Assembly (NCBI GenBank): GCA_944342025.1
Contig: CALVMD010000004.1
Coordinates: forward strand, 5,201-69,200
From: an uncultured Clostridia bacterium
GTDB lineage: Bacteria > Bacillota > Clostridia > Christensenellales > Borkfalkiaceae
Length of the DNA stretch: 64,000 bases
Direction of reading: 5' to 3'
A program made the translations under genes and the position numbers. Under the pieces are notes generated by a model that was given only the letters and a program-made list of their open reading frames with translations, was not told the DNA's origin and searched no databases. How positions within the stretch are numbered: the stretch's first letter is position 1; every line of letters starts with the position of its first letter. Below are positions 11,528 through 39,117 of the stretch, one piece after another.

Positions 11528-12562
11528 TCAGTTTTTTCCGAGGAAAGGCGTCGTTTCGCGCACGACGAAGTTGTTTTTCAGGTAGATCAGCCGGCGCGGA
11601 CGGCGGGGGGATTGAATGCGCTCCAAAAGCGCAGCGACCGCCTGTTTGCCGAGCGCCTGCTTGTCGATGTTCACCGTAGAGAGTTTGGGGGAGTGCAGTC
11701 GGCTTTCGGGCACGTTGTCGAACCCGACCACGTTGATTTTTTGCAGGTTCGCCCGCCGGCATTGTTTGAGCGCGTCGACGACGGCCAGCGCGATAAAATC
11801 GTTTGCGCAGACGATGACGTCTGGCAGCTGCGGCAGAGACGAGTAAAAATTTTCGGCGGCGGCGATGCTGCCGTAGGGGAATGAGTTGTCTTTTAATATC
11901 GAGAGCGTTTCGTCGAACGGTTTGTTCAGCTCGATGAGCGCGGTGCGCAGTCCCATGTACCGCTCAAAAAAGCCTTTGCAGTTGTAAGGATTCCCGACGA
12001 AGGAGAACCGCTCGGCGCCCGCTTCCGCCAGGGGGCGGCACACGGTGCGCAGGACTTCTGCGTTTTCGGACAGGATGACGTCATATTCGCCGCTGACTTC
12101 TTCTTCGCAGCCGATGTCCAGAAAAACGGTGGGGATATTCAGCGACAGGATCTCTTCCGCGCTCCGGCGGTCGAAAAATTCCACGCAGATGATCCCGTTG
12201 ACGTCGAATTGGCGGATATAGCGTTTGACGGTTTCAAAGCCGGAACCGGGATGAAAGACATATTGCAGGATCTCCAGTCCGCACCGCTCTGCTTCCGCCA
12301 TGATGCCGCGGATCAGATAGATATAGTAGTTTGCCGTAAGCAGGGGCACCGAAGAGAGCAGGAGGATCTTTTTGTCCGGCCCTCCGCCCGCTCCCGACGA
12401 AGAAATGAGATCGAAACTCTTATATCCCATCTGCACGGCGGTGTCCAGGATGAGCTGTTTTGTTTTGGGCGAAACATGTTTTCCGTTGAGCGCCTTTGAA
12501 ACGGTATTCCGGGAAAGGTGCAAAGCGTCTGCAATGTCTGCGATGGTAAGCGATTTTTTCAT
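11528..12562 (-). CDS. LacI family transcriptional regulator (cluster I)
   Basis: TIADIADALHLSRNTVSKALNG HTH; CAND, VVGFDN, PKLSTV, VVRET motifs. Confidence 0.92.
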   Translation of the reverse strand: MKKSLTIADIADALHLSRNTVSKALNGKHVSPKTKQLILDTAVQMGYKSFDLISSSGAGGGPDKKILLLSSVPLLTANYYIYLIRGIMAEAERCGLEILQYVFHPGSGFETVKRYIRQFDVNGIICVEFFDRRSAEEILSLNIPTVFLDIGCEEEVSGEYDVILSENAEVLRTVCRPLAEAGAERFSFVGNPYNCKGFFERYMGLRTALIELNKPFDETLSILKDNSFPYGSIAAAENFYSSLPQLPDVIVCANDFIALAVVDALKQCRRANLQKINVVGFDNVPESRLHSPKLSTVNIDKQALGKQAVAALLERIQSPRRPRRLIYLKNNFVVRETTPFLGKN

Positions 12563-12655
12563 GCTTTTTCCCCGTATTGTTTTTTTGTCTATTATAGCGC
12601 GGTAATTGAATTTATGCAACAAAAAACGATTACAAATGTAAGATTTTATGTGTAA

Positions 12656-12677
12656 AAAATGTGCATATGCACGTTTT
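12656..12677. promoter_or_regulatory. Palindromic operator candidate
   Basis: AAAATGTGCATATGCACGTTTT, near-perfect 22-bp palindrome in the divergent lacI/ABC intergenic region. Confidence 0.55.
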
Positions 12678-12689
12678 ATTGGCGTTTTA

Positions 12690-12719
12690 TTGACATTTTG
12701 AAAAACGTGATGATAAGAT
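12690..12719 (+). promoter_or_regulatory. Sigma-A promoter of cluster I operon
   Basis: TTGACA-N18-TAAGAT with TGn extension; AGGAGG RBS downstream. Confidence 0.55.
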
Positions 12720-12740
12720 GAGGGCAAAGGAGGGGATCGC

Positions 12741-13679
12741 ATGGAACAAAGGATAGCGGGGCTGACCCTGAAAGAGATCAGGAAAAAGGAGAAGAAAAAT
12801 TATTGGCTGCTTCTCTTTATTCTGCCCGCGTTTGTGTTCGTATTCATTTTCTGCTATGTGCCGATGTACGGGATTCTGATCGCGTTTCAGGATTTTGTTC
12901 CCGGCGACGAGATCCTGTCGCAATATACGATCTGGGTCGGATGGGATAATTTTGCAATGTTCTTTAAGGACTACATGTTCTGGACGTTGATCGAAAACAC
13001 TTTTCTTCTCTGCTTTTTCGGATTTATCATCGGATTTCCGCTTCCCGTCATCGTCGCGCTGATGCTCAACTCCATGCGCCACAAGCGGCTGTCGAAGACG
13101 ATTCAGACCATCTATTATATTCCGCACTTTATTTCGCTCGTGGTCATGGTCGGCATGCTCTATCTTTTCTTCGGGCAATACGGCCTTGTAAACAATGCGC
13201 TGGAAGCGTTGGGCGGGTCCAGATATTCTTTCTTTTTGCACGAAGAGGCGTTCCGACCCATGTATATCCTGTCGGGAGTCTGGCAGGATTTCGGATGGAA
13301 CGCGATCATATATCTGGCCGCGCTGTCGGGCGTGGATCCCGAACAGCATGAGGCGGCGATCATTGACGGCGCTTCCCGCCTGAGAAGGGTGTTTGCCATC
13401 GACCTTCCCGCGATCGGGGGCACGACTTCTATCCTCCTGATCCTGTCGATCGGCAACATGATCTCGGTGGGGTATGAAAAAGTGCTTCTGATGCAGACGG
13501 ACGCGAACCTCGGCAAATCGGAAGTGATCATGACCTACGTCTATAAAAAGGGCCTGACGGGATATGTCATGCAGGGCTTTTCGACGGCGGTGGGGTTGTT
13601 CAACTCAGTCGTCAACGTCATTTTGTTGATCACGGCAAACTCGCTCGCCAAGCTGTTTTCCAAAAACACGCTGTTCTGA
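12741..13679 (+). CDS. Carbohydrate ABC transporter permease (LplB/YteP-like)
   Basis: TM helices; EAAIIDGA EAA loop. Confidence 0.93.
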   Translation: MEQRIAGLTLKEIRKKEKKNYWLLLFILPAFVFVFIFCYVPMYGILIAFQDFVPGDEILSQYTIWVGWDNFAMFFKDYMFWTLIENTFLLCFFGFIIGFPLPVIVALMLNSMRHKRLSKTIQTIYYIPHFISLVVMVGMLYLFFGQYGLVNNALEALGGSRYSFFLHEEAFRPMYILSGVWQDFGWNAIIYLAALSGVDPEQHEAAIIDGASRLRRVFAIDLPAIGGTTSILLILSIGNMISVGYEKVLLMQTDANLGKSEVIMTYVYKKGLTGYVMQGFSTAVGLFNSVVNVILLITANSLAKLFSKNTLF

Positions 13680-13693
13680 TAAGAGGTGGAACC

Positions 13694-14626
13694 ATGGAAG
13701 AAAACGCAATCGTAAACCCCTCGAGGAAGATCAAAAAACTCAGCAAAGCGATGAGCAAGTCCGACCGCATTTATTATATCGTGATCGACGTTATTTTGGT
13801 TTTGCTCTTATTGCTCGTATTGTATCCGCTGTATTTTGTCGTCATCGCGTCCGTTTCGGATACGGATGCCATCTTCAACGGCGAAGTGTTCCTGTATCCT
13901 GTCGGGATCAATTTCAAGGGCTACGACGCTCTTTTGAAAAACGACATGATCTGGACGGGTTACCGCAACACGATCCTGTATACTCTGGGCGGCACCCTTC
14001 TCAATATTGCCGTCACGATTCCCGCAGGTTGGGCGCTTTCCCGCTTGGAATTGCCGTGGAGAAAATTCATCGCTACCTATTTCATCATTACGATGTTTTT
14101 CGGCGGCGGTCTCATTCCGCTGTATTTGTTGGTTTCGGATCTGAATCTTTTGGACAGTCCGTTCGCGATGATCCTGCCTTATGCGGTCTCCGTCTGGAAT
14201 ATGTTCATGGTCAAAGCCTTTTACACGAGCGGCATTCCCGACGGGGTGCTGGAAGCTGCCGAAGTGGACGGGGCGGGGAGCTTCCGTACCTTTTTCAGCA
14301 TCGTCATCCCGCTGTCGAAACCCATCATCGCGGTCATGGTGCTCTTTTATGCGGTGGCGCATTGGAACAACTATTTCAGCGCGTTGATCTTTTTGTCGGA
14401 CGAAAATCTGTATCCGCTTCAGATGGTGCTGCGGGAGATCCTCATTATGACCGAAACGGCGGGATCGGGTATGGGCGGCGACGCGTCGACCATCCTCGAA
14501 CAGTCGAAACTTGCAAATTCCATCAAATATTCGTCCATCATCGTATCCACGCTGCCGATTTTGGTCCTGTATCCGTTTGTCAGCAAATTCTTTGAAAAAG
14601 GCGTCATGATCGGCGCTTTGAAATAA
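13694..14626 (+). CDS. Carbohydrate ABC transporter permease (LplC/YtcP-like)
   Basis: FFGGGLIP, EAAEVDGA, HWNNYF, KGVMIGALK. Confidence 0.93.
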   Translation: MEENAIVNPSRKIKKLSKAMSKSDRIYYIVIDVILVLLLLLVLYPLYFVVIASVSDTDAIFNGEVFLYPVGINFKGYDALLKNDMIWTGYRNTILYTLGGTLLNIAVTIPAGWALSRLELPWRKFIATYFIITMFFGGGLIPLYLLVSDLNLLDSPFAMILPYAVSVWNMFMVKAFYTSGIPDGVLEAAEVDGAGSFRTFFSIVIPLSKPIIAVMVLFYAVAHWNNYFSALIFLSDENLYPLQMVLREILIMTETAGSGMGGDASTILEQSKLANSIKYSSIIVSTLPILVLYPFVSKFFEKGVMIGALK

Positions 14627-14649
14627 ACATCTGAAAAGGAGGAAACGAG

Positions 14650-16329
14650 ATGAAACACAAATGGCTCGGCAAAGCGCTCGCTTGCGTGCTTGCGGGCACG
14701 ATGCTGTGTTCCTTATTCGCGGGTTGCGGCGGCAAAACGCGGGAAAATAAGGATTGGGAAGAGCTGGGGTACCAGTGGGAGGACACGGAGGCTCCGATCG
14801 TTAAAGAAAAAGGGGTGATCGAATTCGAAGTCCTCGCGCAGAAAAACTCCATGACGCCCAACTATAACGATCTGCAGGTCTTCAACGATCTCGAAGACGA
14901 AACGTATGTCGACATCAATTGGGAAAACATTACCGAATCCGCGTACGCAGAGCGGAAAACGCTGATCCTCAGCGACAGAGAGAACTGGCCGGACGCAATT
15001 TATCATGCCGGGTTCACCAGTGCGGAGATTTCCCGTTATTCGCGCAGGAATACCATTTTGCCGATTTCCGATTATCTCGAATATATGCCCAATTTCAGCG
15101 CGATTTTGGAGCGCAGGCCGGACATCCGCGCGGCGATCACTTCGTACGACGGCAAGATCTGGTCTCTTCCCAGGATCGACGAGATGGGGCTGACGGGCAA
15201 CCCGAATCTTTTGTTTATGAACAAGAACTGGCTGCTTACGCTCATCCGCGACGGGTCCGTCGATTTTATCGACGAGGAGGATGTCGTAGACGGGCTGCAG
15301 CTCGATCTCAATCAGATGACGCAGGTTTTAGAGCTGTTCCGCGACCGAGACATGAACGGCAACGGGGAAGACGACGAGATCCCCATGAGTTTTGTTTTTA
15401 ACAACTGGCAGGGGAACCAGACCGACCTGTACGGCGCGTTCGGACTTCCCGACAATCCCGACCATATGACGATCGTCGACGGTGAGGTCGTTCTGACCGC
15501 GGTTGACGATAAATTTCAGGAAGCCACCAATTTCCTCGCAGACTGGATCACGGACGGCATTGTGCCCCTCTCTGTGCTTGAAAACAGTCAGGACGCTTTC
15601 CTTGCCAGCGGCAAAGGACAGGAAAAGCTGGGTGCGTTCTATTGGTGGGAGAGCGCGACGGTCGTCTCCAATCCCGACAACTACATCGTCATGAGCCCGC
15701 TCAAAGGGCTGAACGGGGAAGAACCGACCCTCGGGCTTTCCAACTATCCCGAGATCTCCACGGGCGGCGTCGTAATCATGGCGTCCTGCCCCAATCCCGA
15801 AGTCCTTTGCACTTATTTCGACAGGCATTACGACCCTCTGTGGTCCGCGCAGCTCAATTACGGGCCGATCGGCGTCGCGTATGAGGAAGAGCCGGATGAA
15901 AACGGCAAACTCGTGCAGAAAGATCCTCCCGAAGGCATGACGGCGGATGAATTCCGTCTTCAGCTTGCGCCCATGGGTATCATGTGCCTCACGCAGTATG
16001 AGTGGGACAACTTCGTGAATATGGAGCCGCGCGCGCAGCTTCGGCTTGACAGGCTGGAAAAATACGCCAACCCGTATAATCCCGAAAACGTCGACAGGAT
16101 CCCCACGCTCAGCTTTACGCTGGAAGAGATCAACATATTGGCACAATATGAAGTGAACGTAGATAACTATCTGATGCAAAACTATATGCAATGGCTGATC
16201 AACGGCGGCGTCAGCGACAGCGCGTTTGCCGAATTCAAGAGCAAGCTCGACGAGATCGGTCTGCAGGAGGTGCTCGATTGTTATCAGGCGGCGTATGACC
16301 GCTATTTGGCAAACCAAGGACAGGAATAA
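14650..16329 (+). CDS. Carbohydrate ABC transporter solute-binding lipoprotein
   Basis: Lipobox FAGC; YMPNF, DGKIWSLP, DMNGNGEDDEIP motifs of LplA-type SBPs. Confidence 0.9.
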   Translation: MKHKWLGKALACVLAGTMLCSLFAGCGGKTRENKDWEELGYQWEDTEAPIVKEKGVIEFEVLAQKNSMTPNYNDLQVFNDLEDETYVDINWENITESAYAERKTLILSDRENWPDAIYHAGFTSAEISRYSRRNTILPISDYLEYMPNFSAILERRPDIRAAITSYDGKIWSLPRIDEMGLTGNPNLLFMNKNWLLTLIRDGSVDFIDEEDVVDGLQLDLNQMTQVLELFRDRDMNGNGEDDEIPMSFVFNNWQGNQTDLYGAFGLPDNPDHMTIVDGEVVLTAVDDKFQEATNFLADWITDGIVPLSVLENSQDAFLASGKGQEKLGAFYWWESATVVSNPDNYIVMSPLKGLNGEEPTLGLSNYPEISTGGVVIMASCPNPEVLCTYFDRHYDPLWSAQLNYGPIGVAYEEEPDENGKLVQKDPPEGMTADEFRLQLAPMGIMCLTQYEWDNFVNMEPRAQLRLDRLEKYANPYNPENVDRIPTLSFTLEEINILAQYEVNVDNYLMQNYMQWLINGGVSDSAFAEFKSKLDEIGLQEVLDCYQAAYDRYLANQGQE

Positions 16330-16341
16330 GGAGGGAGAATC

Positions 16342-18117
16342 ATGAAAAAGATCATTACGGCTGTTTTGGCGCTCGCGCTCGGCTGCACCGCTTTTGCGGC
16401 ATGCACCGACGATACCGGAAACGAGACCAACGAGAAACCCGTCATCACGGGTTTTCAGGATACCTATACCGTGCAGGCGGGGGAAGAATTCGACGCGCTT
16501 GAAGGCGTTACCGCGTCTGACAAAGAGGACGGAGACCTGACGGACAAGATCACGGTTTCGTCCATGCCCGAAGTGACGTTTACGGACGGCAAAGCGACGT
16601 TCGAACAGACCGGTACGTATGAGATCATCTTCGGAGTCACCGACAGCGCAAATCAGCTCACCGAAGAGTTCGCGACCCTGACCGTCACAAAGGCGGACGC
16701 GGAGGAAACGCTCTATCATACCTTCGACTTTTCGGTCAGCACGGCAGAAGTCGACCGCGACGGCTGGGACGTCGCCCTTGCGGGCGGGGCAGCCGCCGAA
16801 GTGAAGACGGAGCGCGGTCTGCTGTCCGCAGAGATCACAAACGGCGGCACGATCAACGGCGACGTCATCCTGCAAAAGACGGATTTTGCCGTGGAAGAAG
16901 GGGTCACTTACGATGTACGGCTCTACATAGGCGCGACGCTGACGGAGGCGAAGTACGTCGATACGGCGGTGCAGAACGCGGCTGGCGCAAACATCATCTA
17001 TCAGGGTGCAAACCTGACCGATTCCATTCAGATCGTGTCCCTTAAACTCAAAGCGACCGAAGACGCGTCCGACTATAAGATCGTCGTGCATTGCGGCGGC
17101 GGTGCGGGCGAATACAGCGTCTACATGGAAAAGGTGGAGATCTATAAATCTTCGGGCGTAGAATCGACGACGGAGATCTTATCGCAGAATTTCGACGGTG
17201 CGGACGCGTCGGGGCTGTTGCAGAAATATCCTTACGATCAGGGAACGGAGTTTTCCGTGACGGACGGCGCGATGCAGGTAAATATCCTGTCCTATCCCGA
17301 AGCGGTCGGAAATATCTGGGAGCGCGGCGTGATGCTCTCGACGGGGCTGGACTTGGAAGAGAGCACGTCTTATCGTTTCATTGCGGACGTGACGGCGCAG
17401 ACCGCGCAGGAATTTGTCGGCAAATTCGTCGCCTCTTCGGGCGAAGACGCGACGGAGTCGGGCAGGTTCCAAGGGACGTTCGAACAGGGCACGCATACCG
17501 TTACGTATGACTTTACGACGGGCGCAGCGAGGGAAGACGCTTATCTCGCCTTCCAGCTCGGTTTCCAGCCCGCAGGGACGGCGTCCAACGCCCTCACCTT
17601 CGATAATGTGCGCATTTTGAAGATTACCTCGGTCGCCGACGTCGAAAAGGACATGGTGCGCTTCATGCCGTACAATTCGGATACGGGGTACGACGTCTTC
17701 AACGGCAGCGACGACGCATCCGGCAAACTGGACGGCACCGGCCGCATTTATACCGACGGCGAGGCGATGCACTTTATCATCAGCAACAAGGGCGGCGCGG
17801 ATTACTACAACAAGATGATGTTCTATATCGACCTCGAAGAGCTGGCAAATTACAGGTTCTCTTTCAAGGCGAAGGCGAACGTCGATCTGAGCTGCTTCAT
17901 GTTCGTCAACGTGAAGGGAGGCTCTTACAGCCCGATCGGCACATACGGCGCGAACATCACGACGCAGGAACAGGAATTCACGTTTACCGCCGAACAGATG
18001 GTCATGCTGGACAATTCGTACGAAATCACGGTGCAGAACGTGGTTCCTTCCGAGGCGGGTTATAACGGAATGATCGAGATCGAGTTTTACGATTTCGAAG
18101 TGTACAAGATCGCCTGA
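16342..18117 (+). CDS. Surface lipoprotein with Ig-like domain and tandem CBM4/9-like beta-sandwich modules
   Basis: Lipobox FAAC; FDALEGVTASDKEDGDLT Ig-like motif; three repeats with LEExxxYRFxF-type strands; no catalytic motif seen. Confidence 0.65.
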   Translation: MKKIITAVLALALGCTAFAACTDDTGNETNEKPVITGFQDTYTVQAGEEFDALEGVTASDKEDGDLTDKITVSSMPEVTFTDGKATFEQTGTYEIIFGVTDSANQLTEEFATLTVTKADAEETLYHTFDFSVSTAEVDRDGWDVALAGGAAAEVKTERGLLSAEITNGGTINGDVILQKTDFAVEEGVTYDVRLYIGATLTEAKYVDTAVQNAAGANIIYQGANLTDSIQIVSLKLKATEDASDYKIVVHCGGGAGEYSVYMEKVEIYKSSGVESTTEILSQNFDGADASGLLQKYPYDQGTEFSVTDGAMQVNILSYPEAVGNIWERGVMLSTGLDLEESTSYRFIADVTAQTAQEFVGKFVASSGEDATESGRFQGTFEQGTHTVTYDFTTGAAREDAYLAFQLGFQPAGTASNALTFDNVRILKITSVADVEKDMVRFMPYNSDTGYDVFNGSDDASGKLDGTGRIYTDGEAMHFIISNKGGADYYNKMMFYIDLEELANYRFSFKAKANVDLSCFMFVNVKGGSYSPIGTYGANITTQEQEFTFTAEQMVMLDNSYEITVQNVVPSEAGYNGMIEIEFYDFEVYKIA

Positions 18118-18182: not shown

Positions 18183-19721
18183 ATGTTGAAAAAGATCATT
18201 TCGCTGGCAATGTGCGCCGCCGTATGCACGGGCATCTTCGCCCTTGCCGGGTGCGGAGAAAAGACGGACGGCGGCAAAACGGACGACGGTTACGTGCAGA
18301 GCGAGAGTATAAACCTCTTTCCTAAACCCGACGAGGGCTATGCGGGCGATCCCATTCCGTTTTACGACGGCGAAAATCTTAACGTGTATTACATACACGA
18401 CGCCCGCGGCTGGAACGACGGTTATTTTCATCCCTGGAATCTCTTCCGCACGAGTAATTTCTATGAGTGGGAAGATCTGGGGCGCGTGATCGCGGGCAAT
18501 TACAACGATAAAGCCAATCAGGATTACGGCATCGGCACGGGCACCGTGCTGAAAGGCAACGACGGGCGGTATCACGCATTTTATACGGGTTGGAACGGCT
18601 ATCCGCAGGCGGACGTTGAATTTACCGAAAAGGTGCAGCACGCCGTCTCGGACGACCTCATCAACTGGACGAAGATCCCCGAGGACGGGTTTTACGGCGG
18701 CGTCGACGATTTCCGCGATCCGCACGTGGTGTGGGTGCCCGAAGACAACTGCTATTGGATGCTCGTTTCCACCTGGCGCGGATTCGGCGATTATAAAGCG
18801 GTGCTCAAATGGTATAAATCCACCGATCTTTCCCATTGGGAGTATGCGGGCATCTTTTACGACGACGCGGTGAACGGCGACTTCATGGAATGCCCCACGC
18901 TCGTCAACTATAACGGATATTGGTATCTTTCCTATTTCCAGAAGGCGGTAGACGGCACGAACGCGCGCGTCACCCGCTATGTTTACAAGAAAAATCTTTC
19001 CGACGCCGAGTGGATCCGCCCGGAAGTGGATTATTTCGACGGCGCCGGGCTTTCGGCCGCGCGGCTCGTGCAGTGCGGAGACAAGCTGGTCACGGTCGGC
19101 TGGATCGGGACAAAGATTTCCGACTGGGATCCCGGGCTGTTCACGTGGGCGGGCAACCTTGCCGTGCATGAACTCAGGCAGCGCGAAGACGGTTCGCTCT
19201 ACGTTGTTCCCATTGACGGCGTGGCGGGCGCATTGACGCATGAAACGCAGTACGAGACGACGTATACGGGCGAATCGGTGGAATACGGCGGCGGCACGGC
19301 GACCTTTTCCGAGTCGGACAGGTTTCAGTATCTCCTTTTTGAAGACATGCGGGAAGAGGCGCTGAAAACGCAGTTCACGCTGAAAGCGGAGAGCGGCAAA
19401 GCGGGGCTTACGTTCGCCCGCGCATCCACGGGATACGGCGAAGTGTGCATCGAATTCGATCTGGATGCGGGACTTTTGTCCTTCTTCAACACAAAGCCGA
19501 CTCTGACGGATACGGCGGCGTCGCAGGCGGTCGTCGCGCTGCCCGCGGCAAAAGACGGCGGATACGAGTGCACGATGATTTCGCAGGGCGAGTGCCTGAC
19601 GCTGTATGTAAACGGGCAGATCGCTTTATCTACGAGGATCTATAATCTGACGGGGTATGAATTCGGCCTGTACGCTTCGGGCGAAAGCGCCGTTTTCTCC
19701 GATCTGAAATTTTTTAACTGA
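18183..19721 (+). CDS. GH32 lipoprotein (endo-levanase-like subgroup)
   Basis: Lipobox LAGC; catalytic YAGDP, FRDP, MECP; WAGNL. Confidence 0.85.
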   Translation: MLKKIISLAMCAAVCTGIFALAGCGEKTDGGKTDDGYVQSESINLFPKPDEGYAGDPIPFYDGENLNVYYIHDARGWNDGYFHPWNLFRTSNFYEWEDLGRVIAGNYNDKANQDYGIGTGTVLKGNDGRYHAFYTGWNGYPQADVEFTEKVQHAVSDDLINWTKIPEDGFYGGVDDFRDPHVVWVPEDNCYWMLVSTWRGFGDYKAVLKWYKSTDLSHWEYAGIFYDDAVNGDFMECPTLVNYNGYWYLSYFQKAVDGTNARVTRYVYKKNLSDAEWIRPEVDYFDGAGLSAARLVQCGDKLVTVGWIGTKISDWDPGLFTWAGNLAVHELRQREDGSLYVVPIDGVAGALTHETQYETTYTGESVEYGGGTATFSESDRFQYLLFEDMREEALKTQFTLKAESGKAGLTFARASTGYGEVCIEFDLDAGLLSFFNTKPTLTDTAASQAVVALPAAKDGGYECTMISQGECLTLYVNGQIALSTRIYNLTGYEFGLYASGESAVFSDLKFFN

Positions 19722-19732
19722 GAGGTGGCACA

Positions 19733-24094: not shown

Positions 24095-24242
24095 GCATAT
24101 CCTGAGTTGCGATCATGTCGCAGAGAGCGGGGGAAGCGCGGTGAAAATCCGTCGCAACAGCCATTACCGTACAGTCGGATAACCCGTCGGGATATTTGTT
24201 TTCGTTTTCATTTCCGGGCAATGGGAAGATGAGCCGACATCA
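24095..24242 (+). ncRNA. Cobalamin (B12) riboswitch
   Basis: GGGAA-gcgc-GGTGAAAATCC-gtcgc-AACAGCC..TACCGT core and distal GGGAAG...GAGCC; upstream of B12 uptake-like genes; boundaries approximate. Confidence 0.78.
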
Positions 24243-30396: not shown

Positions 30397-31302
30397 TCAG
30401 ATATTGTCGGTCGATTCCCGCGGGACGGGGTAGCATTTGATGTAGGTGATCTTCGAATGTTTGGACGGGCGTGTCATTTTATTGACCAGGGCGTTTACAA
30501 GCTCTTTGCCGAGCATCGTCTTATCTACGTTGATGGTGGAAAGGTGCGGGGTCGTGTATTTGCTGGTCGGAGAGTTTTCAAAGCCGATCACTTTAATCCG
30601 TTCGGGGACGGGAATGTCCAGCATCTTCAGCGCTTCCAGAGTCATCGAGGCGATGTAATCGTTGGCGCAGACAAAGCAGTCGGGCAGTTTTGCCTTTGCG
30701 ATGAGAGCGGACAGTCTTTCCAAATTGCTGTAGGGCAGGTCGTTGCCCGCGAGGATGTTGCAGCGCGGGTCGTAAGGGATGTTTCGCAGAAACATTGCGT
30801 CGCGCATGCCCAAATATCGTTCGTAGAAGGAAAGACAGTTTTTGTAATACCCCACGAAGCCGAACGAACGGCAGTTGCCTTTATCGATCAGCGTGAGGCA
30901 ATACGATTTCACGGCGTTCAGGTTTTCCATCATCACTACGTCGTAATTGAAATTGGGCGCCGTATCGGAAAAAACGGTGTCCATGAATACGATGGGAAGA
31001 TTGAGGGACACAACTTGCTCGATCAGATGCTCGTCGAAAAATTCCATGCATAAGATCCCGTCCACCTTGGATTTTTCGATATAACTTTTCAGGTTTTCAA
31101 AAAACTTGTCGGATGAAAGGGTGTACCGCAAGAGGCTCAGGTTCAGCCGCGCCAATTCGTTTTCGATGCTGCGCAGAACATAGATGTGGAAGGGGATATT
31201 CATGAGCATGCGCGTGGAAAGAAGAAGGATCTTTTTGTCTTTCAGCTTTTCAGCCGGTTCGAACGATTTCGGAAAGCTCTTGTACCCCAACTCCGCCGCC
31301 GC
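30397..31302 (-). pseudogene. LacI family regulator lacking N-terminal HTH (cluster II)
   Basis: Begins at hinge AAELGYK; paralogous to 11528..12562 (KKILLLS, GILCMEFFD, CAND, PHLSTINVDK); no HTH or start. Confidence 0.85.
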
Positions 31303-32671
31303 AACGCTCGCCATGGAAGAGGGCGTCATGCGCCTCGACGTGACCAACGCGGGCGACAGCCTGGGCGACGTGCGCCTGATGCGCTCCGAGTTTACGCCGA
31401 CCCCCAGCGCGGATCAGCTCGTCGAATACGAACTCATCCTCACGATGAAAGCTTCTGCCAACATCCTGTTCAGCATGGCGGTCAATCACAATACCGTGGG
31501 CGGCGCGACGGATGCGTGGGCGCCTTTGGACAGTGAATATAACGTGCCGATGGGGACGACGTATGCGGAATACAGCATGACCTTCCAGTCTCCCGCAGAA
31601 GCGGACCAGAATCTCCAGTTCATTTTCGAGATGGGCCAGCACGATTTCGGCACGCCCGATGCGCCCAACAAGCAGAATCCCGATGCTTATACTATCGATA
31701 TTTTGTATTTGAAACTTGTCGAAAGGACCGGCTCAGAAACGCTTACATCCGTATATAAATCCGATTATACGGCGGCGCAACCTGCGATCTCCATGAGCAA
31801 TGCCGAAATGGGCAGCATTTCCTGCGCGGACGGCAAAGCGGTTGCTTCGATCACCGGTTACAGCACGGGAGGGTCCTGGGCGAACAAGATCGAGCAGGAT
31901 ACGACGCTGACCGTAAATTCGGGGAATAAGTATCGCCTCTCAATCACGATGACGGCGGAAAACGCGCAGTCGGGAGAGGTTTGCGTCGAGGATAAGACGC
32001 TCGAATGGCAGGCGCGCGCACTGTATACGGGCTTTACGCTCGAAGCGGGCAAAGAGACGACGATCACCTGCGATTTCAACCAGACTTATACCGAAATCGC
32101 AAATGTGTGCGTCAAGATCTATGTCGGAACGGCGTCGGCAGGCGTGACGAGCAACACGATCACGATCTCGAACATCGAGATCAGCCAGGTCGGCGGCGAT
32201 TTTGCTTCCGATACGTCGCTCTATCGCTTTGTTCCTTATAACAAAGATACCGATTGGAATTACTTTAACGGCAAAGAAGTGGCGCTCGATTCGGGTATGG
32301 GCACCATGTATGAAAAGGATGGGACTCTTTTCTATCGAATCGATGAAATTTCGACCGTGGATTATGGAAACAAGTTGTTTATCAATAAGATTAAGCTGGA
32401 AAAGAATGCGCTTTACAGGGTGAGCTTTACGATGAAAGCGAATAAGCCGGGTACGGTATGGTTCATTCTCAACCCGTACGGCGAATATGACCCTCGCATC
32501 AGCGCAACCTTCAACTTCACGACCGAAGAGCAGACTTTCACCTGCGAAACGACGGGCGAATTCGTCCTCGATATGGACTTCGAACTCGTTTGGTCGTTCG
32601 GACAAGGTTACAACACGGAAGGTGACTACACCATTGAAATTTCGGGTGTCACGATCACAAAGTTGACCTGA
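31295..32671 (+). pseudogene. 5'-truncated paralog of the CBM-like surface lipoprotein
   Basis: RFVPYN.DT...FNG, DYGNK, YRVSFTMKAN, TTEEQTFT match 16342..18117; signal peptide and Ig domain missing. Confidence 0.8.
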
Positions 32672-32756: not shown

Positions 32757-34127
32757 ATGATTTATTTGAGAGAAACGGCGGACAAATATATACGTCAGAA
32801 TCTGAACAACGGATCGAAGGACTTCAAGCCGAAATATCATTTTTCGGCGCAGGTGGGCTGGATCAACGACCCGAACGGGCTGATCTATTACGACGGGTAT
32901 TTTCACGTATTCTATCAGTATTACCCGTACTCGCTCCAATGGGGCCCCATGCACTGGGGTCACGCTCGCAGCAAAAACCTCATCGACTTCGAATATCTGC
33001 CCGTGGCTTTGGCGCCCGATGCACCTTTCGAGAGCGGCTGTTTTTCGGGCGGCGCGGTCCTGGACAAGGACAATAAAGAGATTCACGTCCTCTACACGCG
33101 CAACTATGAGGACGATAAAACGGTGCGGCAGACGCAATATCACGCATATTCCGCCGACGGGGTGAATTTCACCAAAGTCGAGCGCGCCGCCATCGGAGAG
33201 GAACAGCTTCCGCCGGGCTTCCGCGTCTCGTCCTTCCGCGATCCCAACCCCGTACGCATCGGCGACAGGTACTATGTGGTCGTGGGAGCGCAGAGAGAGA
33301 GCAAAACGGGCGCGGTCCTCGTCTATTCATCCAAAGATATGAGCGAATTCGAGTATGAATTCGCCATCGAGAACGAAAATTTCGGAGAGATGGTGGAATG
33401 TCCCGATCTCTTCATGCTGGGAGGCAGGGCCGTGCTAACGCTATCGGTCATCGCGCTCAAAAGCGACAGGCTCACCAATATCGACGGAAAGGCGAACTTG
33501 TATGCGGTCATGGACATCGATTTTGAAAATAAAACGTATTCCTTCCGCCATATCGACAGCCTGGACGAGGGCACCGATTTTTATGCCCCGCAGAGCGTCG
33601 AAGACGGAAACGGCCGCCGCATCATGCTGGCGTGGCTGGATATGTGGAACAACAACCCCTTTCCGCTGCGCAATAAATTCGTATCTAACGGCGTGTATAC
33701 GCTGCCGAGGGAGCTTTCTCTCAACGGCGACACGCTGCTGCAATACCCCCTGCGGGAGGCGAAGGAGATCTTCCGCACGCCGTTTGACGTGAAAAAGGGC
33801 TGCTCGATGCCGAAAACATCGTATGCGGCGCTGGAAATGGAGGAGGGCTCCGTCTTTTCTTTCGGCTTTGCGGGGGAGGGTTTTACGCTCCGCGTAACGG
33901 ACGGATATTTTTTCGTGGAGCAGAAACAGAAAAATCACATTTCCGCCGTGCGGCGCGGCAAAGCGCGGGCGGAAACTTTCAACGCGGAGGTCTTTTCGGA
34001 CAATTGTTCGGTGGAGATCTTCGCGGGAGGGCGCGACGTGTTCAGTGCGCAGGCATTCATAGAATGCGACCGCTATGTAATTTCGCAGGCGGAAAAACTC
34101 AAAGTGCGGCGCGCCGCATATATCTGA
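32757..34127 (+). CDS. GH32 beta-fructofuranosidase (sucrose-6-phosphate hydrolase-like)
   Basis: WINDPNG, MHWGHA, FSG, FRDP, ECP, FYAPQ, LPREL. Confidence 0.92.
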   Translation: MIYLRETADKYIRQNLNNGSKDFKPKYHFSAQVGWINDPNGLIYYDGYFHVFYQYYPYSLQWGPMHWGHARSKNLIDFEYLPVALAPDAPFESGCFSGGAVLDKDNKEIHVLYTRNYEDDKTVRQTQYHAYSADGVNFTKVERAAIGEEQLPPGFRVSSFRDPNPVRIGDRYYVVVGAQRESKTGAVLVYSSKDMSEFEYEFAIENENFGEMVECPDLFMLGGRAVLTLSVIALKSDRLTNIDGKANLYAVMDIDFENKTYSFRHIDSLDEGTDFYAPQSVEDGNGRRIMLAWLDMWNNNPFPLRNKFVSNGVYTLPRELSLNGDTLLQYPLREAKEIFRTPFDVKKGCSMPKTSYAALEMEEGSVFSFGFAGEGFTLRVTDGYFFVEQKQKNHISAVRRGKARAETFNAEVFSDNCSVEIFAGGRDVFSAQAFIECDRYVISQAEKLKVRRAAYI

Positions 34128-34142
34128 GATCTCGGAGTTAAG

Positions 34143-35642
34143 ATGAAAAAAATCGTGTGTTTGATCATGGCAGTCCTGACGATGGGCGTTCTGGCGGCGT
34201 GCGGCCCGAACGGCGGCAAATCGGCAGAGCCGGACGTTGCCGACCTTTCCGGATTGGGTGAGTACGGGCAGGAGAACAATATCGATTACCGATATTTCTG
34301 GAAACCGCCGCAGTCCAACGGCTATGTGGGCGACCCCATGCCCTATTATGAAGACGGCGTTTACAGCATTTTCTATCTGCAGGACGAGGGCGGGAGCGTC
34401 CGCCACAGCATTTTCCGTGTGGACACGACCGACTTTATCCATTACGAATACAAGGGCGAAGTGCTTCGCTCGGGCGACTCTTCCACTTCGCAGGATTACT
34501 GGATCGGCACGGGTTCGGTCGTCAAGGCGGGGGAAGACTATTACTTTTTCTATACGGGCCACAATCCCAATATGGAAAGCGTGGACGGCGGTCCCTGGGA
34601 GAAAGTCCTCGTCGCAAAGTCGGAAGGGGATCTCGATCATTTCGTCAAGGTCGAAGATTTCGAGATCGCGCCTCCCGCGCAGTATTCGCAGGTCGATTTC
34701 CGCGATCCGCAGGCGTATTTTAACGAAGAGACGAACTCTTTCGACATTACGGTCGAAACGAACGCGGGCGGCGTGCCCCTGATCGTCAAATTTACCGTTT
34801 CGCTCGACCTGAAAACGGTCACGCACGACGGGATCGTGTTTCAGGACACGGCAAACGGGTTCTGGAACCTCGAATGCGCCGACATCACCTATCAGAACGG
34901 AAAGTATTACATGGTCTATTCGGGGCAGCCCAACGATACCGTCTGGTATACCGTCAGCGACGAGATGTTTTCGGGCTACGGCACGCCGACCCGGCTGGAG
35001 GGCAAGCACTTCTATGCCGCAAAGATGGTCGAAGGGGATGCCGGCACCTTTTTGGTCGGCTGGGTCTACCGCCGCAGCAGTTTTTCGGACACGTCCGATC
35101 TGTATTGGGGCGGACATCTGGTCGCGCACAGGATGATCTTCAATGAAGACGGCACCGTCTCTTTGACCCATCCCGACGGGATCGGAGGTTATTTCGGTTA
35201 TGAAGAGGAAACGGAACACGGCGAGTTGACCGTGTCGAGCGGGAACCGCATGTTTGCCGAGGCGTACGAAAGTTTCATGCTGAAGGGCTCTTTCCGCTTT
35301 TCGGGCGGCGAAAAATTCGGGCTGGTGCTCGGCTACGGCAACGATCCTTCTGCGTACCGCTATGTCGAATACGCCCCCGGAACGGGCGTTCTGGGTTACA
35401 GGATCGAGGGCAGGAGCGCGAACGAGTGCGAGGTCGCCATACCGCTCGAAGAGAATACCGATTATACGTTTACGTATTTGCAGGAAGGGTCTGTCGCCGC
35501 TCTGTATATCGACGGTGTTCCCGGCGGCGCACTCTCCTTCCGCACGCACGGCACCAACAATACGATGATCGCCTTTTTCTCGGACGGCAGCACGCTGAGC
35601 GTGAAGGATCTGAAACAGTATCTTCGCAGCAAGGAGGCGTGA
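34143..35642 (+). CDS. GH32 lipoprotein (endo-levanase-like subgroup)
   Basis: Lipobox LAAC; YVGDPMP, IGTGSV, FRDP, LECAD, FYAAK, WGGHL. Confidence 0.85.
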   Translation: MKKIVCLIMAVLTMGVLAACGPNGGKSAEPDVADLSGLGEYGQENNIDYRYFWKPPQSNGYVGDPMPYYEDGVYSIFYLQDEGGSVRHSIFRVDTTDFIHYEYKGEVLRSGDSSTSQDYWIGTGSVVKAGEDYYFFYTGHNPNMESVDGGPWEKVLVAKSEGDLDHFVKVEDFEIAPPAQYSQVDFRDPQAYFNEETNSFDITVETNAGGVPLIVKFTVSLDLKTVTHDGIVFQDTANGFWNLECADITYQNGKYYMVYSGQPNDTVWYTVSDEMFSGYGTPTRLEGKHFYAAKMVEGDAGTFLVGWVYRRSSFSDTSDLYWGGHLVAHRMIFNEDGTVSLTHPDGIGGYFGYEEETEHGELTVSSGNRMFAEAYESFMLKGSFRFSGGEKFGLVLGYGNDPSAYRYVEYAPGTGVLGYRIEGRSANECEVAIPLEENTDYTFTYLQEGSVAALYIDGVPGGALSFRTHGTNNTMIAFFSDGSTLSVKDLKQYLRSKEA

Positions 35643-35645
35643 CGC

Positions 35646-36911
35646 ATGATCTTCGAGTGCAAAAATCATGTCACGTGGGACACGTGGATGTATTTCCGCG
35701 ATAACAAATATTATCTGTACTATCTCATCACCGACCGTTCGGGCGGCGAAGGGTTCGGCGTCGCCGTCAGCGAAGACGGCATTCATTACGAGGACCGGGG
35801 CACCTGCATTACGGCATCCGACAAGATGGTCATCTACCTCGGGACGGGAGCAGTGTGGGAAAGCCCGGATTTCGAAAAGGATAAAACGTTTATCTGCAAC
35901 TATTCGGAATGGCGGCGGGATGAATCTACGGGAAAGCATTATCAGAACATCTTTTTTGCAACGAGCAAAGATCTCATTCATTGGGAAAAGACGGGCGAGG
36001 ACGGCGTTTTTCCCGTCGACGAAAGGTATTACGTGCGCTGCGACGAAGACGGCGGGCGGTGGGACTGCATTTACCCCAACCGCACGGCGGAAGGATACGA
36101 GGGCTTTTTTACGGCGACGCCCAAAGAGTATATCGGCTGCGGCTATGCCGTGAGCGAAGACGGACTCAGATGGATGGCGAAAAAACCGCCGAGATTTTCC
36201 TTGGACGGTTATGACGACATCAGACAGGGCGTCGAGGCGGGCGCCGTGTGCGTGCACGGGGGCAAATATTATATGCTCATGGGAACGTATCTCTACCGTT
36301 ACGGCATGAGCGTGATGGTTTCGGACAGCCCCGACGGCATTTACCGCCCGCAGAAGAAGAATTTTTCGCTCCTGTCCAACCGTTCGTTCATGCACGCCTA
36401 TTTCATGCGCATAGCGGACGTGAACGGGAAGAAATACGTGAACCATCACGTCCTTTTGCGCGAGACCAACGAGTTCGGCAGAAATACGACGCTCGCCGCG
36501 CCTCTCAAAGAGATCGATTTCGACGAAGAGGGGATCCTGCGGCTCAGATGGGCGGCGCTGAACGAGGGGCTCAAGGGCGAAGAGATCTCCGATTTCGATT
36601 TTGAAAACGGGTTCGTCGCGGAATACGAGAGCGCGAAGACAGACGAAATCTCTTTTAAAACGGATAAAGAGACGGTCACGCTGCAATTCGGGTTTGACGA
36701 TTGCAGCCTGAAAATTTTTGAAAACGGCGTCCTTGCGGAAGATATATGCAAGGATGTGTGCGCGGCGGGCAGGCGCGTGCGGATCCTGTACAGGAATACG
36801 CTCATGGAAGTGTATGCGGACGATTATTTCGTGACTTGTTATACTTTCAAAGACGGCGTGCGCACGGTCGAAAATCAAAACGGGCAGAAGATCTGGAGGA
36901 TCAATTTATGA
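35646..36911 (+). CDS. Putative five-bladed beta-propeller glycoside hydrolase (divergent clan GH-J/GH43-like)
   Basis: WDTW, AVSEDGIHY, GTGAV, SKDLIHW, RWD, VSEDGLRW, VEA, SDSPDG.Y; truncated beta-sandwich tail. Confidence 0.6.
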   Translation: MIFECKNHVTWDTWMYFRDNKYYLYYLITDRSGGEGFGVAVSEDGIHYEDRGTCITASDKMVIYLGTGAVWESPDFEKDKTFICNYSEWRRDESTGKHYQNIFFATSKDLIHWEKTGEDGVFPVDERYYVRCDEDGGRWDCIYPNRTAEGYEGFFTATPKEYIGCGYAVSEDGLRWMAKKPPRFSLDGYDDIRQGVEAGAVCVHGGKYYMLMGTYLYRYGMSVMVSDSPDGIYRPQKKNFSLLSNRSFMHAYFMRIADVNGKKYVNHHVLLRETNEFGRNTTLAAPLKEIDFDEEGILRLRWAALNEGLKGEEISDFDFENGFVAEYESAKTDEISFKTDKETVTLQFGFDDCSLKIFENGVLAEDICKDVCAAGRRVRILYRNTLMEVYADDYFVTCYTFKDGVRTVENQNGQKIWRINL

Positions 36912-38145
36912 CGGGAAGGGAACGCATCCTGCGGGCGATCGATCATCAGCCGACGGACAGGATCCCCGTAGATTTCGGGGGCACCGTTCGAGCGGCATTT
37001 CGGTGCAGAGCTATATCAAACTCAGGGAGGCGCTCGGGCTGCCGCCTTCCAAGCTCTATATTTATGACTTTATCCAGCAGCTCGTGCTGATCGAAGACGA
37101 CGTATACGAGAGGATTCCGACCGACGTCGTGCAGCTCGGGCAGGTCTATCTCGGCCGCCCCGATTACTGGCAGGATTGGACGCTCGAAGACGGGACACCC
37201 TGCAAGATCCCCGCTTATATTAACGTGGTGCGCCGCGACGACGGCGACGTCGTGTACGGCGAGGACGGCGAGGTCATCTGCATCAAAAAAAAGGGATGCC
37301 TGTATTTCGAACAGACGTGTTTCCCCTATGCGGATTCGGACGACGAAGCGTTCGACGATATCCTGCAAAAGCTGAATAAGATCATGTGGTGGAAACTCGG
37401 CGTGCCGCCCGCTCCCGCGGGGTATGACGAGGCGGGGCTTGCCAGGATGCGCGAAGACGCGAAGGAATTGCGTTCGAAGACGGATAAGGCGATCTATGCG
37501 ATCTTCGGCGGGAATCTGGTCGAGATGAGCCAGTTTGCTTTCCGCATCGACAACATTATGTGCGAGATGGCGCTCAGCCCCGACAGAGTGCATAAATTTT
37601 TGGATAAACTGATGGAAATGCACCGCGCAAACCTGAAAAAGTTTGTGGACGCGGTGGGGGATTATGTGGACATCATCGGGTTCGGCGACGATATGGGCAC
37701 GCAGAACGGCCCGCAGTTCTCTCCCGATATGTACAGGGAGTTTTATCAGCCCCGGCACAAAGAACTGTGGAGCGCGGTGCGCAAGTATAATCCGGATCTC
37801 CGCACCAATCTGCATTGCTGCGGAAGCATCGACAGGCTGCTGGACGACATCATCGACGCGGGCATAGACAGCATCAATCCCGTGCAGATCAGCTGCAGCG
37901 GCATGGAGCCGGAACATCTCAAAGAAAAATTCGGCGACCGCATGGCGTTCTGGGGCGGCGGCTGCGCATCGAACGTGTGCATGTCGGGGACGAAAGAAGA
38001 GATCGAGGCGCATGTGAAACACAATATCGATATCTTTTCGAAGGGGAGCGGGTTCATCTTCCAGCATGTGCATAACATCCTCGCGAACGTGTCCCCCGAG
38101 AATTTCCTCGCGATGTTCGACGCCGTGCGCGGATACGGGCGCTGA
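36908..38145 (+). pseudogene. URO-D/MtaA-CmuA family protein with 1-nt frameshift (cluster II); may be a sequencing error
   Basis: MTGRERI...DRIPVDFGG in one frame and RSSGISVQ...GDDMG...LHCCG...WGGG...QHVHNI in another; one extra G in G5 (36977-36981) restores FGGHRSSGIS. Confidence 0.82.
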
Positions 38146-38160
38146 GCGAGGAGGGAGCAT

Positions 38161-39117
38161 ATGGTCATTTGCGTCGGAGAGATCCTTGCGGACATGATCG
38201 GAAAACCCGCCGAAGACGGCACGGTCGCATTCAGCCGCCATGCGGGCGGCGCGCCGTTCAACGTGGCGTGCGGCGTCAGGGCGTCGGGCGGCCCGGGCGG
38301 TTTCATCGGGCGGGTCGGAGACGACATCACGGGCAGATTCCTGATCGGGTTTGCCCAAAAGCAGGGACTCGACTTTTTGAAGATCGAAAAAGACCCCGAC
38401 CATAATACGACGCTCGCCTTTGTCGAGCTGGATGAAAACGGGGAGCGCAGTTTTTGTTTCGCGCGTAAGTTTGCCGCCGATTATAGGATCGCCGATCCCT
38501 TCGACGAAAGCTTTTCGGGGGCAGATATCGTACATATCGGTTCGCTGATGCTGAGCGAACCCATCGGAAGAAAGACTTGGGGGCGCGCTTTTGCCGCGGC
38601 AAAACGCGCGGGTAAAAAGGTCAGTTTCGACGTCAATTTCCGCAGCGATCTGTTCGGCAGCGACGAAAAGACGAGAGAGCTGTTTCTGTCCTGTATCGAG
38701 CGGGCGGACATCGTCAAGGTCAGCGAAGAGGAGCTTTGTTTCCTCTGCCGTGCGGAGCGCAAAGATACGCAGACGTGGTATGCCGAACCGCTTTTGCGGC
38801 TTTGCGGCAAAGATAAAATCGTTGCGCTGACGCTGGGCGCGGAGGGCTGCGCCGTGTGCTGCGGGCGTGAGATATACCGCGTGAACGCCAAAAAAGTTGC
38901 GCCCGTCGATACGACGGGGGCGGGCGATTCTTTTTACGCCGCATTCCTTTCGGGCCTTGACAGAAGAGGCTGTACCCCTTCAGCTGCGGCGGAGTCGGCA
39001 AAAGAAGCCAACGTCGCGGCGGCGTATACCGTCGCGCAGTACGGCGCGATCGTGCCCCTGCCGGACAGGGCAACGATCGAAAGGGAAGCCGCGGCGCTTT
39101 CGGCGGTCAGGATCTAG
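38161..39117 (+). CDS. PfkB family carbohydrate kinase (fructokinase-like)
   Basis: GGAPFNVA, SFDVNFR, KVSEEE, DTTGAGDSF. Confidence 0.92.
   Translation: MVICVGEILADMIGKPAEDGTVAFSRHAGGAPFNVACGVRASGGPGGFIGRVGDDITGRFLIGFAQKQGLDFLKIEKDPDHNTTLAFVELDENGERSFCFARKFAADYRIADPFDESFSGADIVHIGSLMLSEPIGRKTWGRAFAAAKRAGKKVSFDVNFRSDLFGSDEKTRELFLSCIERADIVKVSEEELCFLCRAERKDTQTWYAEPLLRLCGKDKIVALTLGAEGCAVCCGREIYRVNAKKVAPVDTTGAGDSFYAAFLSGLDRRGCTPSAAAESAKEANVAAAYTVAQYGAIVPLPDRATIEREAAALSAVRI

Follow-up and report, generated by a model that had tools for sequence, protein, structure and literature searches.

Why should a gene of the uroporphyrinogen decarboxylase (URO-D) fold stand directly upstream of a sugar kinase gene in each of two glycan-utilisation clusters, with the parts of a B12-dependent methyl-transfer system lying between the two? 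The question is raised by positions 11528-39117 of a 64,000-nucleotide stretch from an uncultured Clostridia bacterium (GenBank assembly GCA_944342025.1, contig CALVMD010000004.1, positions 5,201 to 69,200 of the forward strand), the whole of which is here called the window. Cluster 1 (11528-23281) contains the gene URO-D#1 and cluster 2 (30397-39117) the gene URO-D#2; the cassette between them (23345-30118) encodes a corrinoid protein, a reductive activator of corrinoid enzymes (RACE) and a third URO-D-fold protein, which resembles the methyltransferase MtaA. An initial annotation of this DNA had proposed that the cluster-embedded URO-D proteins are substrate:corrinoid methyltransferases (MT1) acting on O-methylated sugars. 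On balance we consider it probable that the window contains the hub of a corrinoid-dependent methyl-transfer network serving URO-D enzymes of carbohydrate loci, a reading in which we infer that methyl groups are transferred at all, that the donor is a sugar and which one, and what accepts the methyl group. New here are a quantified and controlled co-occurrence with RACE and the result of a complex model.

The source organism is recurrent in chicken-gut metagenomes of many studies, and its genome bin measures 1.57 Mb and is 78% complete. Gene calls on the window are from Pfam, NCBIfam and Rfam profile searches. Co-occurrence was determined across 398 evenly sampled Clostridia genomes, the queries being URO-D#1, URO-D#2, the RACE family and, as a control, glycoside hydrolase (GH) family 32; genes were counted as URO-D#1-like at E<=1e-20 and as full-length, strong URO-D#1-like at 240 bits or more. 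For comparisons of gene order, the locus L040 served as the nearest relative and L039 as the next nearest.

Co-occurrence with RACE

RACE was found in 68 of the 74 URO-D#1-like genomes versus 87 of the remaining 324, in 23/25 genomes with full-length URO-D#1-like genes and in 20/21 genomes with URO-D#2-like (P0004-like) genes, which corresponds to 92-95% of the genomes with URO-D#1- or URO-D#2-like genes versus 27-36% of the others. The exceptions without RACE were all incomplete metagenome-assembled genomes (MAGs; 61-92% complete). Regarding the GH32 control, RACE was present in 17 of 56 GH32 genomes (30%) without URO-D-like genes and in all 24 with them; it is thus with the URO-D paralogues, and not with fructan use as such, that RACE is associated. 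Because kinship inflates such counts, the tallies were stratified by taxonomic family: in the eight families with both kinds of genome, RACE occurred in 15/16 URO-D#1-like-positive versus 22/66 negative genomes (33%). Outside the sample, all 11 genomes with related loci, from six phyla, contained RACE versus 1 of 14 control genomes (the set of 11 includes Clostridia, Armatimonadota, Actinomycetes, Humimicrobiaceae, three Pirellulales and Spirochaetales). The initial annotation had held that frequent occurrence of such URO-D genes in genomes lacking corrinoid proteins and RACE would speak against its proposal; the tallies of genomes that carry them (68/74, 23/25, 20/21 and 11/11) point the other way. 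As far as gene content can tell, this indicates that the cluster-embedded URO-D enzymes depend on a B12 carrier.

The same counts bear on a different account, which we regard as unlikely. The URO-D proteins would be B12-independent sugar enzymes (a decarboxylase, an isomerase or another zinc-barrel enzyme), the cassette a self-contained mlp-type system for S- or Se-methyl groups that lies nearby, and the co-occurrence a product of shared lineage or habitat. The URO-D fold does perform cofactor-free decarboxylation in HemE, and the His-Cys-Cys site of the cassette's MtaA-like enzyme is of the kind linked to S/Se methyl transfer (PMC10418091). Shared lineage or habitat would have to explain, however, why RACE accompanies the genes in 92-95% of cases but reaches 30% in GH32-only genomes and 33% in same-family negatives, and why it is present in 11/11 genomes across phyla.

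In G044, G218, G049, G191 and other Clostridia, 40-66 first-look URO-D-like candidates were seen per genome, but one or two RACE matches, a pattern of extreme paralogue expansion of one fold.

Identity of the URO-D proteins

Against the hemE model (TIGR01464, cut-off 303 bits), URO-D#1 scored 39 bits, URO-D#2 27 bits and the MtaA-like protein 88 bits, values far under the cut-off that rule out a HemE identity for all three and agree with the initial annotation's reading of the cluster-embedded pair as MT1 enzymes instead of HemE. Against the MtaA/CmuA model (TIGR01463, cut-off 235 bits), URO-D#1 reached 62 bits, URO-D#2 45 bits and the MtaA-like protein 149 bits; URO-D#1 is nearer to the NCBIfam MtaA models than to HemE. 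Judged by these model scores, URO-D#1 and URO-D#2 are neither HemE nor canonical MtaA. The AlphaFold2 model of URO-D#1 (predicted local distance difference test, pLDDT, 93.6) is a (beta/alpha)8 barrel, and its best Foldseek match was MtaA of M. mazei (4ay7, template modelling score (TM) 0.77), followed by full-length matches to UROD (TM 0.63-0.73) and then by MetE and BHMT. Searched by sequence against the PDB, URO-D#1 matched MtaA and two URODs only, with no solved O-demethylase MT1 to compare.

The zinc-site motif reads HSC...H in URO-D#1 and HCC...H in URO-D#2. Across 40 homologues of URO-D#1, H226 and C228 never vary, and at least 90% of the homologues keep H310. When the nine paralogues of the source genome are aligned, His-x-Cys...Cys is kept by the cassette enzyme alone, which has the full His-Cys-Cys zinc signature; URO-D#1, URO-D#2 and two other paralogues have His-x-Cys...His, one has Asn as the third ligand, and in three Asp replaces Cys, so that ligand positions are altered in all eight divergent paralogues; where the third ligand differs, its place is taken by His or Asn or is left without a ligand. 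According to Kountz and Balskus (PMC10418091), UroD-family S-methyltransferases have His-Cys-Cys, and O-methyltransferases swap one or both Cys. As read from the alignment, the pattern fits a set of eight candidate MT1 enzymes directed at oxygen and one candidate methyltransferase directed at a thiol on the acceptor side (MT2).

The corrinoid carrier and its predicted partners

Profile searches of the genome yielded nine URO-D-fold genes, one small corrinoid protein (besides MetH) and one RACE; MttB, MtaB and CdhC (acetyl-CoA synthase) were not found in searches of the 78% complete bin. The URO-D-fold proteins are therefore the sole candidate partners of the carrier. A corrinoid methyl-transfer chain requires a methyltransferase on the donor side and another on the acceptor side, and because none of another type was found, only URO-D-fold proteins can fill both places in the source genome. 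If they worked without B12, the chain would be left with the one methyltransferase that the cassette supplies. A corrinoid protein shared by the URO-D enzymes, as the initial annotation envisaged, agrees with this inventory as well as with the complex model, which passes its controls.

The predicted complex of the corrinoid protein with URO-D#1 scored 0.80 and the best of three controls 0.00, a difference that a B12-independent role does not lead one to expect; the mark of 0.80 is reached by 58 of 80 solved complexes and by 2 of 110 mismatched pairs. Runs agreed in at least 98% of contacts, and the partner pLDDT was 91. In the modelled interface, the loops on the B12 face of the carrier (DxHxxG, SxL and GG, all invariant in its family alignment A2) are placed on the mouth of the URO-D#1 barrel, at or beside the family-invariant residues Q191, G197, Q276, Q277, T313 and D315. 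As a prediction, the model supports binding of the corrinoid protein by URO-D#1.

Gene neighbourhoods of the URO-D paralogues

Of the eight divergent URO-D paralogues of the source genome, seven have carbohydrate genes as neighbours and the eighth an M60 peptidase. The six beyond URO-D#1 and URO-D#2 adjoin, respectively, GH38 and a GxGYxYP protein; GH2 and a BNR protein; GH52-like, GHL6 and Gfo/Idh genes; a GH5-like gene; a sugar sensor and binding protein; and the M60 peptidase. The block of GH32-like gene, URO-D#1, PfkB kinase and GH32 is kept in two related MAGs (L001 and L002, with 88% and 71% identity), and PfkB is adjacent to, or a few genes away from, the URO-D#1-clade gene in 8 of the 9 distinct loci with at least 55% identity (directly paired in L001, L002, L012, L015 and L057; within a few genes in L013, L054 and L055). 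GH32 accompanies the two genes in L001, L002 and L057, the last of which is an operon of ROK, ATP-binding cassette (ABC) importer, URO-D, PfkB and GH32. The loci L012, L013, L015, L054 and L055 have ribose-type ABC importers, GntR or LacI regulators, DUF4432 and alcohol dehydrogenases. Judged from gene order, the conserved unit is one predicted to import a small sugar-like molecule, to act on it in a URO-D step and to phosphorylate it.

DUF4432 recurs beside the URO-D#1-clade gene and PfkB in L012, L013, L054 and L055 and may be a candidate for a second step of the same pathway; NCBIfam gave no family for the copy scanned (L012). IolC- and IolM-like partial NCBIfam scores for the PfkB kinases, the zinc-dependent alcohol dehydrogenase and DUF4432 were far under their cut-offs, so no specificity was assigned from them and they were not used.

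In the window, the corrinoid protein gene lies 4.8 kb from URO-D#1, and the arrangement is similar in L040 but not in L002, L012-L036 and L054-L057. None of 20 neighbourhoods of URO-D#1-like genes with 40-44% identity showed operonic linkage to a corrinoid protein, RACE or PfkB; these genes, which have no adjacent kinase, probably have other specificities. The closest orthologue of URO-D#2, in G044, adjoins an M24 peptidase instead of sugar genes. A B12-binding gene 8 kb from that orthologue encodes an aminomutase subunit and was set aside as unrelated.

The neighbourhoods also bear on the nature of the methyl donor. We think it decidedly unlikely, though in keeping with the known biochemistry, that the URO-D paralogues are corrinoid-dependent MT1 enzymes with non-sugar donors: either aromatic aglycones of plant glycosides that bear methoxy groups, such as flavonoids and lignans, or other small methyl compounds taken in along with glycans. 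The glycosidases would then do no more than remove the sugar. Every UroD-family MT1 characterised so far has a methoxylated aromatic or a haloalkane as its substrate (PMC13222342, PMC10418091), gut Clostridia are known to O-demethylate dietary aromatics, the co-occurrence with RACE and the complex model would fit equally, and the G044 orthologue just mentioned stands apart from sugar genes. On the other hand, genes of the URO-D#1 clade lie near a sugar kinase, and also next to monosaccharide-type ABC importers and GH32 or DUF4432, in 8/9 loci, no aromatic-compound genes were seen in these loci, and the MT1 genes of known aryl O-demethylases are operonic with a carrier and a pterin-binding MT2 (PMC10418091), an arrangement not seen here.

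Proposed pathway and points to be weighed against it

In the reading that we prefer, that of a corrinoid-dependent network serving carbohydrate loci, the hub would consist of the PocR-AraC regulator, the corrinoid protein, DUF2284, RACE and the His-Cys-Cys MtaA-like enzyme, beside riboswitch-controlled genes for presumed corrinoid uptake, and would serve divergent URO-D-fold enzymes scattered in carbohydrate loci, with one such locus on either side of it. Fructoside-type glycans would enter by way of surface GH32-like lipoproteins and an ABC importer, and cytoplasmic GH32 enzymes would free the monosaccharide from them. URO-D#1 and URO-D#2, as MT1, would hold a methylated sugar or sugar-like polyol (released by GH32 or imported) at their modified metal site, and the methyl group would be accepted by Co(I) of the shared corrinoid protein; the demethylated sugar would be phosphorylated by the adjacent PfkB. 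The MtaA-like enzyme would unload the carrier onto a thiol acceptor, and RACE would re-reduce carrier that has become oxidised, keeping it in the Co(I) state. MtaB of the Mta system, in which zinc assists the activation of methanol, provides a chemical precedent.

Several observations weigh against this pathway. To our knowledge, fructans do not carry O-methyl groups, which leaves the donor in a GH32/fructokinase setting unexplained. The members of the URO-D family considered here are known from genes and models only. No corrinoid protein lies within 7-10 kb in 8/9 loci of the URO-D#1 clade, and the operonic linkage typical of known O-demethylases was not seen for this clade; both this distance and the conservation of the cassette on its own would suit URO-D proteins that act without B12. 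The initial annotation had described the glycan loci as wired to the B12 module: the cassette indeed adjoins a LacI/ABC/carbohydrate-binding module (CBM) sugar locus both in the window and in L040, but that of L039 has no recognised sugar neighbours, so the physical wiring is weak evidence and genome-wide co-occurrence the stronger. That co-occurrence is in turn overstated by Fisher values, since related genomes are not independent. The complex score of 0.80, from a model without cobalamin, may partly reflect memory of solved corrinoid-protein complexes. HemE also has His at the position of the third ligand. Close orthologues of the His-Cys-Cys MtaA-like enzyme were present in just 2 of 5 URO-D-rich genomes tested, and this enzyme was rejected as a universal partner. 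A stand-alone pterin-binding MT2 of the MtvA/OdmD/CdmA type was not found in the genome, in which the sole PF00809 match is MetH (on C23); the completeness of 78% bears on every genome-wide absence.

The matter of the acceptor also leaves some room for traffic in the opposite direction, or for a role outside catabolism, in which a methyl group would pass from a thiol or selenol via the MtaA-like enzyme onto sugars or other acceptors by means of the URO-D paralogues, or in which the paralogues would be sensors. Corrinoid methyl transfers are reversible in vitro, and ClMlp2 has been assayed in reverse (PMC10418091); here, as said, a stand-alone pterin-binding MT2 was not found. The paralogues nevertheless lie in catabolic loci with importers, hydrolases and kinases and with no sign of glycan synthesis, and we consider this direction highly improbable.

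The B12 cassette

The features of the cassette and of both clusters are summarized in Table 1. Profile searches with Pfam and NCBIfam confirmed the corrinoid protein, RACE, the third MtaA-like gene, DUF2284 and the PocR-AraC regulator that the initial annotation had placed between the clusters. The corrinoid protein scored 209.5 bits with the NCBIfam model pyl_corrinoid, slightly under the cut-off of 215.3 bits. Of the B12 uptake genes that had been described as riboswitch-controlled, the AdoCbl-II riboswitch was recovered by Rfam, and a consensus scan placed a terminator-like hairpin 3' of it (24244-24271); the identity as uptake genes is a language-model lead (look-alike scores of 0.93-0.96 for the two small genes downstream), whereas Pfam and NCBIfam scans gave no match for either of them. 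A role of the two genes in corrinoid uptake is probable at the level of a lead.

The cassette is kept as a unit across several Clostridia families (L039, L040, L042, L043 and L046), in each case with the PocR-AraC gene beside those of the corrinoid protein and RACE, and orthologues of the MtaA-like gene sit in the cassettes of L039, L040 and L046.

Table 1. Features of the two glycan clusters and the intervening B12 cassette (window coordinates; roles are predicted)
Feature	Position	Strand	Evidence
Cluster 1			
LacI-family regulator	11528..12742	-	Pfam LacI + Peripla_BP_3; L001 orthologue covers 85%
ABC sugar importer, CUT1-type: two BPD_transp_1 permeases + DUF3502 lipoprotein binding protein	12741..16329	+	Pfam; kept in L001, L002
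Surface lipoprotein, CBM4_9 + Ig-like domain	16342..18117	+	Pfam; lipoprotein signal peptide in translation
Divergent GH32-like lipoprotein, extracellular	18183..19721	+	Pfam Glyco_hydro_32N 4e-17 (weak); signal peptide
URO-D#1 (P0001), cytoplasmic MtaA-fold TIM barrel, candidate MT1	19733..20737	+	Pfam URO-D PF01208 4.6e-29
PfkB sugar kinase paired with URO-D#1	20742..21656	+	Pfam PfkB
Cytoplasmic GH32	21662..23281	+	Pfam Glyco_hydro_32N 3e-68
B12 cassette			
DUF2284 predicted metal-binding protein	23345..23890	-	Pfam 3.7e-46; between corrinoid protein and RACE in L039
AdoCbl-II riboswitch	24115..24193	+	Rfam RF01689, 37.4 bits vs gathering score 36.5
DUF4430-like lipoprotein, riboswitch-controlled	24306..24812	+	Language-model similarity only
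Energy-coupling factor (ECF) S-component-like membrane protein, riboswitch-controlled	24838..25392	+	Language-model similarity only
Corrinoid (B12) methyl-carrier protein	25532..26164	+	Pfam B12-binding + B12-binding_2; sole small one found in genome
RACE/RamA-type ATP-dependent reductive activator of corrinoid enzymes (2Fe-2S + ASKHA)	26251..27696	+	Pfam RACo_C_ter 9e-58, Raco_middle, Fer2
PocR-sensor AraC-family regulator of cassette	27786..29045	+	Pfam
MtaA-like methyltransferase (P0002), candidate MT2, convergent gene	29108..30118	-	Pfam URO-D 3.7e-61; motifs HNC + GCD
Cluster 2			
LacI remnant, ligand-binding domain alone	30397..31347	-	Pfam Peripla_BP_3 only
CBM4_9 protein, N-terminally truncated, without signal peptide	31184..32671	+	Pfam
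Cytoplasmic GH32	32757..34127	+	Pfam, NCBIfam
GH32-like lipoprotein (weak GH32)	34143..35642	+	Pfam, NCBIfam
Very divergent five-bladed-propeller GH, GH32/43-like	35646..36911	+	Pfam, NCBIfam
URO-D#2 (two frames in window)	36908..38145	+	Pfam URO-D 2.6e-22; motif HCC...H
PfkB kinase, fructokinase-like	38161..39117	+	Pfam; best NCBIfam = fructokinase model, 190 bits vs cut-off 450

Organization of the glycan clusters

The initial annotation described two paralogous clusters. The named genes are present, and a URO-D gene lies upstream of PfkB in both, but in cluster 2 the LacI gene is a remnant, the CBM protein is truncated and there is no transporter. Cluster 1 has the full set of a GH32 fructan locus (GH32, importer, LacI and a kinase in the place of the fructokinase); the specificity of that kinase is not settled by NCBIfam, the best partial matches of which (IolC-N, ribokinase and fructokinase) are all far under their cut-offs. 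The true start of the cluster 1 LacI protein probably lies about 60 codons downstream of the first ATG. Upstream of cluster 1 (8273-11185) lie genes for a LysR regulator and for a rubrerythrin that has a rubredoxin-like domain; rubrerythrin is typical of strict anaerobes.

In a colinear alignment with L040, about 4.6 kb (L040:4907-9476) is absent from cluster 2 at 31302/31308, a segment that in L040 carries the helix-turn-helix part of LacI, the genes of two permeases and of the binding protein, and the beginning of the CBM gene. Three independent runs gave contigs that cross the junction unbroken, which shows the gap to be genuine in the source species, and cluster 2 is a reduced copy with no importer or intact regulator of its own.

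The start of URO-D#2 at 36908 was correctly given by the initial annotation, but the gene is frameshifted in the window at a run of five G (36977-36981). Contigs of four independent runs have one extra G at this run (G6), and URO-D#2 is thus intact in other populations; the G5 state of the window could stem from faulty assembly, from a mutation private to it or from variation in homopolymer length. A single contig of run X3, representing one strain, has four single-base indels (32710, 32735, 34145 and 36022), the last of which falls within the GH32/43-like gene. Cluster 2 may be decaying in some populations.

After cluster 2, on the same strand (39340-43273), are an FGGY kinase (araB-like), a class II aldolase (AraD-like) and an L-arabinose isomerase (araA-like), so that an L-arabinose catabolic set adjoins the GH32-type genes of the cluster. 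An open frame of 1145 codons (33441-36878, minus strand) runs antisense to the three GH32-type genes; it has no Pfam match and is most likely a by-product of G+C-rich coding on the opposite strand.

Significance

Methyl ethers block sugar catabolism, and the oxygen-dependent P450 route to their removal cannot work in guts and sediments. It is quite possible, and we propose it tentatively, that strict anaerobes of several phyla strip methyl ethers from sugars and sugar alcohols by a B12-dependent network in which up to dozens of substrate-specific URO-D-fold MT1 enzymes in glycan loci share one carrier, RACE and MtaA-like transfer to a thiol. If this were true, carbohydrate (alkyl) methyl ethers would join the substrates of corrinoid methyltransferases, and the anoxic use of methylated sugars would be explained. 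If the enzymes are corrinoid-dependent, the supply of B12 would control access to part of the dietary glycans, carbohydrate methyl groups would feed one-carbon and sulfur metabolism in the gut, and a function could be given to many genes that now wrongly bear the label 'uroporphyrinogen decarboxylase'. The URO-D#1 family comprises 736 clusters (50% identity) at E<=1e-30 and 9271 at E<=0.001, with up to 66 first-look URO-D-like candidates per genome in some Clostridia, and we know of no sugar-locus member with an assigned reaction. The window is a good experimental entry, with the carrier, the activator, a candidate MT2 and two candidate MT1 genes within 20 kb.

Comparison with known systems

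In the literature searched, neither B12-dependent demethylation of sugars nor the presence of URO-D genes in GH32 loci is the subject of any paper. UroD-family MT1 enzymes are known to use methoxylated aromatics and halomethanes, and many of their clades have yet to be characterised (PMC13222342). In the same literature, the oxygen-dependent P450 is the sole type of sugar demethylase described (PMC6292453). The P450 sugar O-demethylases of marine bacteria, which act on 6-O-methyl-D-galactose, are similar in proposed role in that they remove a methyl ether that blocks catabolism and are encoded in glycan loci, but they are oxygen-dependent and oxidative, with unrelated fold and cofactors, and nothing of the kind is present in the window.

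Closest in composition are the three- or four-component corrinoid O-demethylase and dehalogenase systems of anaerobes (MtvABC of Moorella, Odm and Vdm of Acetobacterium dehalogenans, archaeal MtoABCD, and CdmBCA), which have a TIM-barrel MT1 of the UroD superfamily, a small carrier with DxHxxG, an activator of the RACE type and, as in the source genome, many MT1 paralogues per few carriers (PMC13222342). Their donors, however, are methoxylated aromatics or halomethanes, and their MT1 genes are operonic with a carrier and a pterin-binding MT2, whereas in the source genome the MT1 candidates lie in glycan loci by sugar kinases, the sole pterin-binding protein is MetH and the second methyltransferase is MtaA-like. 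The MtaA/MtbA methylcobamide:coenzyme M methyltransferases (4ay7, TIGR01463) provide the best structural and sequence-model match to URO-D#1, with His-x-Cys kept, but the scores of URO-D#1 and URO-D#2 (62 and 45 versus 235 bits) and their third ligand, His instead of Cys, set them apart, and the source lineage does not belong to the methanogens. Type 1 mlp clusters (PMC10418091) share with the cassette an MtaA-like His-Cys-Cys protein, a corrinoid protein and RACE, with no folate methyltransferase; they need both Mlp2 and Mlp3 with these and are tied to sulfur or selenium genes, whereas the cassette has one MtaA-like protein, PocR-AraC and DUF2284, and lies among sugar loci.

Regarding the sugar side, every part of the fructan and fructo-oligosaccharide loci of Gram-positive bacteria (LacI, CUT1 ABC importer, GH32 and fructokinase) has its counterpart in cluster 1, which differs in the additional URO-D gene between the GH32-like gene and the kinase, a block found again in L001 and L002 and in part (URO-D, PfkB and GH32) in L057. 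Taken against these relatives, the system is probably of the corrinoid three-component methyltransferase type, in a new layout and probably with a new class of substrate.

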